This document shows, piece after piece, positions 43,830 through 44,551 of a stretch of 64,000 nucleotides of DNA. Below the pieces are notes generated by a model. It did not search any database. It was not told the DNA's origin and saw nothing but the letters and a program-made list of their open reading frames with translations. A program made the translations under genes and the position numbers. Every line of letters begins with the position of its first letter. Position 1 is the stretch's first letter. Source of the stretch: Escherichia coli (GTDB lineage Bacteria > Pseudomonadota > Gammaproteobacteria > Enterobacterales > Enterobacteriaceae); NCBI RefSeq assembly GCF_016903815.1, contig NZ_CP069973.1; one strand, written 5' to 3'.

Positions 43830-44270
43830 ATGGCACCAGAAACGATCGATCACTCAACCTTACATAAACTGGTTGAATCTGGCGTAGTGGATGCAGCACA
43901 CGTTATTGGCACCCAGGGAGGCTGGTCGTTGACCGTGAAATACGGCCACACTGAACGGCCTCTTGCAGCACAACGCAGTCGGCAAATCCGCCTGTTCAAA
44001 CGGCTGGAAACGGTTGTCAACTACCTGAAAGATGTTGGTATTGCCCGGTTTGAAGTCGACGCCTCTAATTACGACCCGGACGGTCAGAAGAAAACGACCC
44101 GACCAGACAGGGCTGAGGCATTAAAACGAGCTCATGAAGCTGCCGCGTATGATGCCTGGTTTCGAGAGCAGGTGCAGGCCGCCATTGACGATCCACGCCC
44201 GGCACTCTCTCATGAAGAGGCCAAAAGTCTATTTGCTGCCCGTAAAAAAGCCTTGCTGAAGGGGGATTAA
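43830..44270 (+). CDS. putative antitoxin with PaaA2/ParD-like C-terminal region and uncharacterised N-terminal domain (146 aa)
   Basis: AGAGG RBS upstream; C-terminal AWFREQVQAAIDDPRPALSHEEAKSLFAARKKALL resembles ParE-neutralising antitoxins (PaaA2-like, from memory); stop overlaps downstream start (TAATG). Confidence 0.7.
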   Translation: MAPETIDHSTLHKLVESGVVDAAHVIGTQGGWSLTVKYGHTERPLAAQRSRQIRLFKRLETVVNYLKDVGIARFEVDASNYDPDGQKKTTRPDRAEALKRAHEAAAYDAWFREQVQAAIDDPRPALSHEEAKSLFAARKKALLKGD

Positions 44271-44551
44271 TGCGTCTGGAATGGAAGCCAATGTCCCTGT
44301 CTGACAGGGAGCAAATCATGGAATACATCAGTAAAGATAATCCGCTAGCGGCAATAGCCCTTGATAATCAATTTGAAGCCATTGCGGAACAGGCCTGTGA
44401 ACGCCCGGAGATGTACCGGGCCGGACGAGTCGCTGGTACACATGAAGCCGTTGTCAGGCCGCATTATGTGCTTGTCTATCAAGTGGAGGGCGATACGCTC
44501 TCGGTACTGCGTGTTTTACATACCGCTCTGCAATGGCCGCCAGCGGAATAA
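44270..44551 (+). CDS. ParE/RelE-superfamily toxin-like protein (93 aa)
   Basis: Strong SD (AAGGGGGA) 5 nt upstream; sequence ...DREQIMEYISKDNPLAAIALDNQFEAIAEQ...GRVAGTHEAVVRPHYVLVYQVEGDTLSVLRVLHTALQWP has ParE family hallmarks. Confidence 0.8.
   Translation: MRLEWKPMSLSDREQIMEYISKDNPLAAIALDNQFEAIAEQACERPEMYRAGRVAGTHEAVVRPHYVLVYQVEGDTLSVLRVLHTALQWPPAE

Follow-up and report, generated by a model that had tools for sequence, protein, structure and literature searches.

What stands between rhlE and dinG in an Escherichia coli chromosome that lacks ybiA at its K-12 position, and could it act as a toxin–antitoxin (TA) module? The question is raised by a window of 64,000 nucleotides (the whole stretch of DNA analysed, from contig NZ_CP069973.1 of assembly GCF_016903815.1), in which a cassette with two small genes, encoding proteins of 146 and 93 amino acids (aa), occupies this interval. 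The cassette is read here as a self-contained chromosomal type II TA module of the ParE/PaaA2 lineage, with the 146-aa protein as the antitoxin and the 93-aa protein as the toxin. We put the probability that it is such a module and works as proposed below at about three in four.

The gene pair and the toxin

Both open reading frames (ORFs) lie on the + strand and begin with ATG (Table 1). They are joined by a TAATG overlap of one nucleotide (nt), in which the last A of the antitoxin stop codon TAA (44268-44270) is the first base of the toxin ATG (44270-44272). The toxin start is preceded by the purine-rich GAAGGGGGA, and AAGAGG is found 10 nt 5' of the antitoxin ATG. An initial annotation, made from the letters of the window, had described two co-directional ORFs of these lengths joined by TAATG, with a Shine-Dalgarno sequence before the second, and its coordinates and overlap were borne out. 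As expected of a type II TA system, the two small adjacent co-directional genes form one operon in which the antitoxin gene comes first. Among related loci, a toxin homologue adjoins the antitoxin homologue in 75 of 82 cases, and the overlap measures 1 or 4 nt in 52 of the 54 cleanly called pairs. Besides the antitoxin and the toxin, no gene family was common to the flanks of the related loci across genera, so the module has no third gene able to supply a repressor.

The assignment of the 93-aa ORF to the ParE/RelE superfamily, also made in the initial annotation, was upheld by Pfam, in which ParE_toxin (PF05016) was matched by toxin residues 3-86 of 93 at E=1.3e-13. The toxin also passed the NCBIfam RelE/StbE model TIGR02385 with 38.5 bits (cut-off 27.9). 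Since PF05016 and TIGR02385 cannot split the ParE from the RelE branch, a family profile was built from 24 toxin homologues of related loci and searched against all PDB sequences. The top match was ParE2 of E. coli O157 (5cw7_B, E=7e-18), followed, down to E ~0.5, by other ParE toxins (among them 5ceg, 6x0a, 6xrw, 8c24 and 8c26), and RNase-type toxins (HP0894, YafQ-like) appeared at E ~0.5 or worse. When the predicted toxin structure was compared with the PDB by Foldseek, the top 13 hits were all ParE chains, with template modelling (TM) scores of 0.72-0.85 on the target; YoeB, YafQ and RelE ranked below them with lower TM. The predicted topology comprises a strand, a two-helix hairpin and a three-stranded sheet, and the chain ends with the third strand. 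The C-terminal helix, on which the catalytic residues of RelE sit, is absent from the predicted structure, and the toxin C-terminus (...LHTALQWPPAE) was aligned with that of ParE2 (...IHARRQFP). By the profile ranking against the PDB and the Foldseek order, the 93-aa protein is assigned to the ParE branch of the superfamily, nearest to the PaaA2-associated ParE2. ParE2 colocalises with the nucleoid and induces the SOS response, and its target is unknown (PMC8630535).

Some of the related loci lack an intact toxin gene. Truncated or fragmentary toxin genes were observed beside intact antitoxin genes in several Pseudomonas and other loci (L006 4155-4421, L026, L030, L033, L046), and at L031 4444-4575 the toxin ORF is only 43 aa long next to an intact antitoxin gene. 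These cases suggest that toxin decay with retention of the antitoxin is recurrent in Pseudomonas and other loci.

The antitoxin and its putative operator

The antitoxin was modelled alone with AlphaFold2 (AF2) from a 27-sequence alignment, and the model had a predicted local distance difference test score (pLDDT) of 77. It consists of an N-terminal α/β domain (helix 8-17, strands 20-28, 31-38 and 41-46, helix 59-69, strand 74-77), a low-confidence linker and two C-terminal helices at residues 94-120 and 128-144. Residues 104-130 matched the Pfam family PaaA2 (PF21217) at E=4e-10, in agreement with the earlier suggestion that the upstream ORF ends in a segment like those of ParE-neutralising antitoxins. 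Residues 83-139 align with nearly all of PaaA2 (3zbe, E=2e-4), and the best PDB match of the antitoxin family profile was PaaA2 as well (5czf_A, E=5.9e-8). The segment match and the ParE2-like partner toxin together place the protein in the PaaA2 family (PF21217). The NCBIfam RelB-family antitoxin model NF050103 scored 47.1 bits on the antitoxin C-terminus, under its cut-off of 50. For the complex, antitoxin and toxin were joined by a flexible linker and modelled as a fusion with AF2, using 25 naturally paired homologues. The pLDDT of antitoxin residues 111-140 rose from 65-76 in the protein alone to 94-96 in the fusion, which is consistent with folding of the C-terminus upon toxin binding. 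The protein database holds more than 900 clusters of ~146-aa antitoxin homologues; in nearly all of the 120 clusters listed, the domain pair PF21217+PF28031 is found, and all are uncharacterised.

The initial annotation was right about this C-terminal segment and overlooked two other features, the conserved N-terminal domain and a conserved palindrome upstream of the operon. The most conserved stretch of the antitoxin is the basic segment LAAQRSRQxRLF at residues 45-56, within the N-terminal domain. PDB sequence and family-profile searches found no sequence relative of this domain among solved structures, and Pfam and NCBIfam gave no RHH (ribbon-helix-helix), ParD or CopG match for the antitoxin. 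The folds nearest to the model were eL38 and the FtsH periplasmic domain, not RHH, helix-turn-helix (HTH), AbrB or Phd. As modelled, the N-terminal α/β domain is unlike any characterised antitoxin DNA-binding fold. The domain has a remote resemblance to NCBIfam NF041544, of which antitoxin residues 6-83 span positions 2-78 of 80 (E=3.5e-8). The model scored 33 bits against the full antitoxin and 35 bits against residues 1-88, with a curated cut-off of 95. N-terminal domains, stand-alone plasmid versions included, scored 30-39 bits; being far under the cut-off, these scores indicate remote homology to NF041544 and not membership. On the IncP-9 plasmid NAH7, a protein named ParC, which may or may not belong to NF041544, is without a known function and left transcription unaffected in the reported assays (PMC12421886).

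Versions of the N-terminal domain without the PaaA2 tail were also observed. It occurs as an 80-aa stand-alone protein of ~53% identity on small Aeromonas plasmids (Aeromonas veronii, L084 2924-3166), with a short different tail on a Fluviibacter plasmid (L085 2489-2809) and with a long basic tail on a Xanthomonas perforans plasmid (L083 1787-2269). All of these match the NCBIfam ParC model under its cut-off. Nine Burkholderia phages encode only the N-terminal domain, which looks like a mobile module. On the Aeromonas plasmid the domain gene lies 5' of relB/relE, and a reading as a split three-gene system was dropped because gaps of 125 and 400 nt lie between the genes and the relB-type antitoxin is an unrelated one.

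The antitoxin gene is preceded by a 19-bp palindrome, GCAATTTATTATTAATTGC, of the form GCAA-N11-TTGC. Its conservation was examined at 79 antitoxin-homologue loci from one-genome-per-species collections, 72 of them testable, with at most one mismatch allowed in the 8 outer bases. A copy located 57-80 nt before the start codon of the antitoxin gene was seen in 54 of the 72 loci, at a density ~10 times that in the remainder of the same loci. The bearers come from two proteobacterial classes and belong to Escherichia, Erwinia, Pantoea, Serratia, Photorhabdus, Xenorhabdus, Pseudomonas and several Betaproteobacteria. Synteny among many of the Pseudomonas loci means that these do not count as independent, and the other genera have unrelated flanks. 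In a divergent betaproteobacterial clade the basic segment reads LAATRGxPR instead of LAAQRSRQxR and the palindrome is shifted to GCACTTT-N5-AAAnTGC, so that the antitoxin basic segment and the putative operator co-vary at the level of this clade. This palindrome, GCACTTTnnnnnAAAnTGC, lies ~40-75 nt 5' of the antitoxin start (L058, L066, L073-L075, L079).

The best sigma-70-like match in the region, TTTACG and TATTAT with a 17-nt spacing, has its -10 hexamer inside the palindrome, as a consensus match only. The palindrome thus overlaps a promoter-like site, and its role as an operator is putative. A second arm, TTAATTATAAATTGCA, contains an extra half-site, ATAAATTGC, and a TATAAA hexamer; the Erwinia, Pantoea and Serratia loci share a similar conserved element, TATAA(A/T)TTGCA. 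From the sequence, two promoter placements are plausible. The half-site core GCAATTT occurs in three exact copies if 43761-43767 is counted, and a repeat of a 7-mer could be due to chance.

In canonical type II antitoxins the DNA-binding domain is N-terminal (PMC3141249). The N-terminal domain described here (PF28031, remotely ParC-like and eL38-like) may represent an uncharacterised class of antitoxin DNA-binding domain that reads the 19-bp GCAA-N11-TTGC palindrome. In that case the widespread family of gene pairs would represent the PaaA2 lineage in its 'complete' form, and the O157 prophage systems would have lost the domain and come to depend on PaaR2. We regard the chances of this extended proposal as evenly balanced. 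If true, it would bear on the evolutionary question of Jurenas et al. 2021, who asked whether an ancestral DNA-binding domain of PaaA2 had decayed (PMC8630535).

The locus, its distribution and its neighbours

A blastn comparison with the K-12 locus (L001) restricted homology to 41908-43701 and 44623-47222 of the window. These boundaries confirm that the cassette stands where K-12 has ybiA and that it is flanked by the core genes rhlE and dinG, both as the initial annotation had stated. The left homology ends 28 nt past the rhlE stop codon, just after the rhlE terminator hairpin, and the right homology restarts 99 nt before the dinG start. The 921-bp cassette replaces 706 bp of K-12 (L001 1795-2500) that contain a repetitive extragenic palindromic (REP)-like repeat and ybiA; the repeat has ~40 matching places per genome. 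A tblastn search with YbiA over the 64-kb window gave no significant match (best E=0.054, at an unrelated position) and no nucleotide remnant of ybiA was found inside the cassette, in line with the earlier observation that no ybiA-like frame is present. YbiA is a NADAR-family protein; reversal of guanine ADP-ribosylation and an antitoxin role are known for some members of this family (PMC11125620). The absence of this NADAR enzyme from the window could matter for phenotypes tied to YbiA in strains with the cassette.

Table 1. Features of the cassette between rhlE and dinG (positions in the 64,000-nt window; a dot marks features without a strand).
Feature	Position	Strand	Remarks
Cassette	43702..44622	.	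promoter/operator region, two genes and 71-bp tail; 921 bp, differs from K-12
Direct copies (two) of half-site core GCAATTT	43725-43731, 43740-43746	+	direct-repeat family D3
Best sigma-70-like promoter	43744..43772	+	TTTACG, 17 nt, TATTAT; consensus scan, 9/12 matches
Palindrome, putative operator	43761..43779	.	19 bp; inverted repeat I8; centre TATTAT resembles a -10 hexamer
Second arm	43787..43802	.	inverted repeat I1; 94% complementary to 43760-43775
Antitoxin gene	43830..44270	+	146 aa; N-terminal domain, linker, two PaaA2-type helices
Antitoxin residues 1-80	43830-44069	+	conserved α/β N-terminal domain (model)
Antitoxin residues 81-93		+	low-confidence linker
Antitoxin residues 94-146	44109-44267	+	two PaaA2-type helices (predicted)
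Shine-Dalgarno-like sequence	44258..44266	+	inside the 3' end of the antitoxin gene; read from the sequence
Toxin gene	44270..44551	+	93 aa; ParE branch of RelE/ParE superfamily by Pfam, family profile against PDB, Foldseek and predicted topology
Cassette tail	44552..44622	+	71 bp; less conserved than the genes; no terminator-like hairpin

The cassette was present in 324 of 5,426 complete E. coli genomes (6.0%), always in single copy and on the chromosome. It falls into two allele groups with the same junctions, one of 236 genomes at an identity of at least 99% and one of 88 genomes at 95-99%. The K-12-type ybiA segment was counted in 3,429 of the complete genomes, and in many other E. coli a diverged 'NADAR family protein' allele of ~90% identity is present. 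In Escherichia whittamii (L004 3874-4793) the same cassette lies between rhlE and dinG, with amino-acid identities to the window proteins of 98.6% for the antitoxin and 97.8% for the toxin, and the locus is collinear with the window over 8.4 kb at 93% nucleotide identity. Its presence at the same place in this species indicates that the allele seems to be older than the boundary between E. coli and E. whittamii, or to have been transferred across it. The cassette genes have diverged about as much as their flanks: in strain HB42 they are 97.7-97.9% identical and rhlE/dinG 97.2-97.5%, and in E. whittamii 95.0-95.9% and 93.3-93.6%, respectively. No allele examined has a disrupted copy of either gene. 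Against two diverged alleles, the ratio of nonsynonymous to synonymous substitution rates (dN/dS) of the antitoxin gene was 0.04 and that of the toxin gene 0.08-0.15, values that place both under purifying selection. As the divergence of the cassette matches that of its flanks and the junctions are the same in 324 genomes, we conclude from these comparisons that the cassette is a long-standing allele at this place, passed on vertically and kept under selection, rather than the product of a recent insertion in one strain. The strain-specific replacement that the initial annotation had proposed is contradicted by the genome counts and by E. whittamii. Strain WCHEC96200, of sequence type 405 (ST405) and phylogroup D, has an identical cassette, and the cassette marks an old rhlE-dinG allele in phylogroup D-type lineages such as ST405.

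Homologous pairs occur on plasmids too, for example on a Klebsiella IncFIA plasmid with 77% identity. A search of 50,697 phage records found no full-length homologue, and a phage origin was rejected, as only the N-terminal domain was found there, in the nine Burkholderia phages. The GC content of the cassette is 49.5%, compared with 52.0% for the window, and no flanking direct or inverted repeats, transposase, integrase or tRNA were found at the junctions of 43702-44622. The GC content is near the genome average, and the junctions bear no sign of mobility. In the cassette tail, identity between alleles is 83-85% versus 95-98% in the genes. The tail folds no better than shuffled sequences (z = -0.47), the cassette gave no Rfam match at E ≤ 1 and no + strand terminator was found in it; on these results a non-coding RNA or terminator in the cassette was rejected.

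The downstream neighbour dinG (44722-46873) is split into ORFs 44722..45813 and 45728..46873 by an additional G at ~45804 (GCGTGGGCCTGG in the window, GCGTGGCCTGG in strain TUM1223). The 71-nt dinG stretch with the insertion occurs in 51 complete E. coli genomes, including the ST405 strain WCHEC96200, and RefSeq flags dinG of strain 7/2 as a 'frameshifted' pseudogene. From this recurrence and the RefSeq flag, the split is judged to reflect loss of the SOS helicase DinG at the level of a lineage rather than an error of sequencing in the window. The conserved right flank contains TATTGGCTGTTTATACAGTA (44688-44707), which we take to be the dinG SOS box. The interval from the toxin stop (44551) to the dinG start (44722) has no terminator-like hairpin, and transcription from the TA promoter could read through into dinG; this is impossible in K-12, because ybiA points the opposite way.

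Proposed mechanism, alternatives and known systems

The proposed mechanism builds on what was computed, namely the family membership of both proteins, the pairing of their genes, conservation of the palindrome, purifying selection and occurrence in the population. By analogy with ParE toxins, above all O157 ParE2, the toxin would most likely act as a poison of DNA gyrase, or of a related topoisomerase step associated with the nucleoid, and trigger the SOS response; mRNA cleavage on the ribosome is unlikely. Like PaaA2 on ParE2, the C-terminal helices of the antitoxin (~94-144) would fold onto the toxin and neutralise it. The N-terminal domain would dimerise and bind the 19-bp palindrome overlapping the promoter, with the operon repressing itself, and the 1-nt TAATG overlap would couple translation of the toxin to that of the antitoxin. 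Antitoxins of this class are usually broken down faster than their toxins; if this one is too, loss of expression would free the toxin.

Several points weigh against this scheme. The best above-threshold NCBIfam model for the toxin is RelE/StbE (TIGR02385), and RefSeq labels the protein 'mRNA interferase toxin, RelE/StbE family' in some genomes. Even for ParE2, the closest characterised toxin, gyrase is an unconfirmed target (PMC8630535). The palindrome as defined is missing in 18 of the 72 loci. The AF2 run gave no inter-chain error, and the docking of the antitoxin C-terminus on the toxin is deduced from pLDDT only. No experimental study of the protein pair was found in the searchable literature, outside of which many subscription papers lie.

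Were the toxin a ribosome-dependent mRNA endonuclease of the RelE/StbE type, with the rest of the module unchanged, both the TIGR02385 score and the RefSeq label would be explained, and PF05016 spans both branches. We nevertheless consider this very unlikely in view of the profile search, in which ParE2 led and RNase-type toxins were not significant, the 13 ParE chains that precede YoeB, YafQ and RelE in the structural ranking, the ParE2-like C-terminus with no RelE-like helix in the model, and a partner antitoxin of the ParE-specific PaaA2 type. It is equally improbable that the cassette is a decayed or domesticated remnant, in which an inactive toxin and its partner hitch-hike between core genes. 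Such a remnant could be old in the locus and inherited with its flanks, as the cassette is, and would agree with the absence of any hit among known defence-system models; for many chromosomal ParE homologues, moreover, only mild toxicity is reported (PMC6368863). Against it stand the intact genes in every allele with their low dN/dS, the conserved start-stop overlap and operator, and the persistence of the family as intact pairs in dozens of genera as well as on plasmids.

The regulatory part of the proposal has a more serious rival, although this too is unlikely. The N-terminal domain may not be the DNA-binding module and may serve another role such as oligomerisation, sensing or a partition-related function, the palindrome being bound by something else, such as a host factor or other surfaces of the TA complex. 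A fold nearest to eL38 and the FtsH periplasmic domain, the remote likeness to NF041544, the NAH7 ParC protein without transcriptional effect in the reported assays (a possible member of NF041544; PMC12421886) and the occurrence of the domain alone or with other C-termini on plasmids all fit this view. DNA binding by the domain is favoured by the lack of a third gene that could supply the repressor, by a palindrome that accompanies the gene pair into unrelated contexts and by the N-terminal position of the DNA-binding domain in canonical type II antitoxins (PMC3141249). It is also favoured by the position of the most conserved part of the antitoxin, a basic segment, within this domain and by the altered palindrome of the clade in which that segment is altered. 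The self-regulating ParE/PaaA2 module is the preferred reading.

The components of this module are already catalogued. RefSeq names the antitoxin 'antitoxin PaaA2 family protein' or 'hypothetical protein' and the toxin 'type II toxin-antitoxin system RelE/ParE family toxin', and the domain pair PF21217+PF28031 is on record. The initial annotation had considered that the cassette might prove to be an already-named locus in most E. coli; it is named, but most genomes do not have it. The literature search found no mention of the RefSeq accessions, PF28031, PF21217 or a PaaA2-like two-domain antitoxin, and a search for 'parWABC' found nothing. In PADLOC-DB no family matched the antitoxin or the toxin at E ≤ 0.01, and a known anti-phage defence system was rejected on this result. 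The novelty is a ParE/PaaA2 module in which a fused, uncharacterised and putatively regulatory domain takes the place of the separate repressor. For E. coli genomics the finding is routine, one more auto-annotated accessory type II TA module. As a natural two-gene counterpart to the atypical, well-studied paaR2-paaA2-parE2, with a defined candidate operator, it opens the questions of how PaaA2-type systems are regulated without a separate repressor and of what the ParC-like domain does on many plasmids.

Compared with known systems, the module shares superfamily fold and operon logic with relBE and RelE-StbE, and its toxin passes TIGR02385. It differs from them in that the toxin ranks with ParE by profile and structure and the antitoxin scores under the cut-off of the RelB model. 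The N-terminal 80 residues of the antitoxin align end to end with the 80-position model of the 'ParC family partition-associated protein' (NF041544), below the level of membership; unlike the antitoxin, ParC proteins have no PaaA2 tail. The parDE systems (RK2, Caulobacter, Vibrio cholerae parDE2, M. tuberculosis parDE1/2, P. aeruginosa) are likewise two-gene operons with a ParE-fold toxin and an antitoxin that combines an N-terminal regulatory domain with a C-terminal neutralising region. Their ParE proteins are the next structural neighbours of the toxin (5ceg, 6xrw, 8c24, 8c26, 6x0a), with an identity of only 16-24%. ParD antitoxins have a ribbon-helix-helix DNA-binding domain, and the abstracts on V. 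cholerae ParD2 state only 'an ordered DNA binding domain'. The N-terminal domain described here is instead modelled as helix, three strands, helix and strand, which sets the module apart from parDE.

The nearest solved relative of the toxin belongs to paaR2-paaA2-parE2 of the E. coli O157:H7 prophage CP-933P (PDB 5cw7, 5czf, 3zbe). Toxin and O157 ParE2 share ~28-30% identity, a profile match of E=7e-18 and a TM of 0.83-0.85; the antitoxin C-terminus shares the motif WxR..V....DPRP with O157 PaaA2, and in both systems the antitoxin gene lies 5' of the toxin gene. O157 PaaA2 is a disordered 63-aa protein without a DNA-binding domain, and its operon needs the CI-like repressor PaaR2, encoded by a third gene (PMC8630535). 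In contrast, the antitoxin described here is 146 aa long, with a folded N-terminal domain (as modelled) and a palindrome of its own upstream. There is no paaR gene; rhlE lies upstream and dinG downstream, in a chromosomal core locus, whereas paaR2-paaA2-parE2 lies in a prophage immunity region. With an N-terminal domain on the antitoxin and no separate repressor gene, the module falls outside the three-component paaR-paaA-parE type, and it looks like a self-regulating two-gene version of it.

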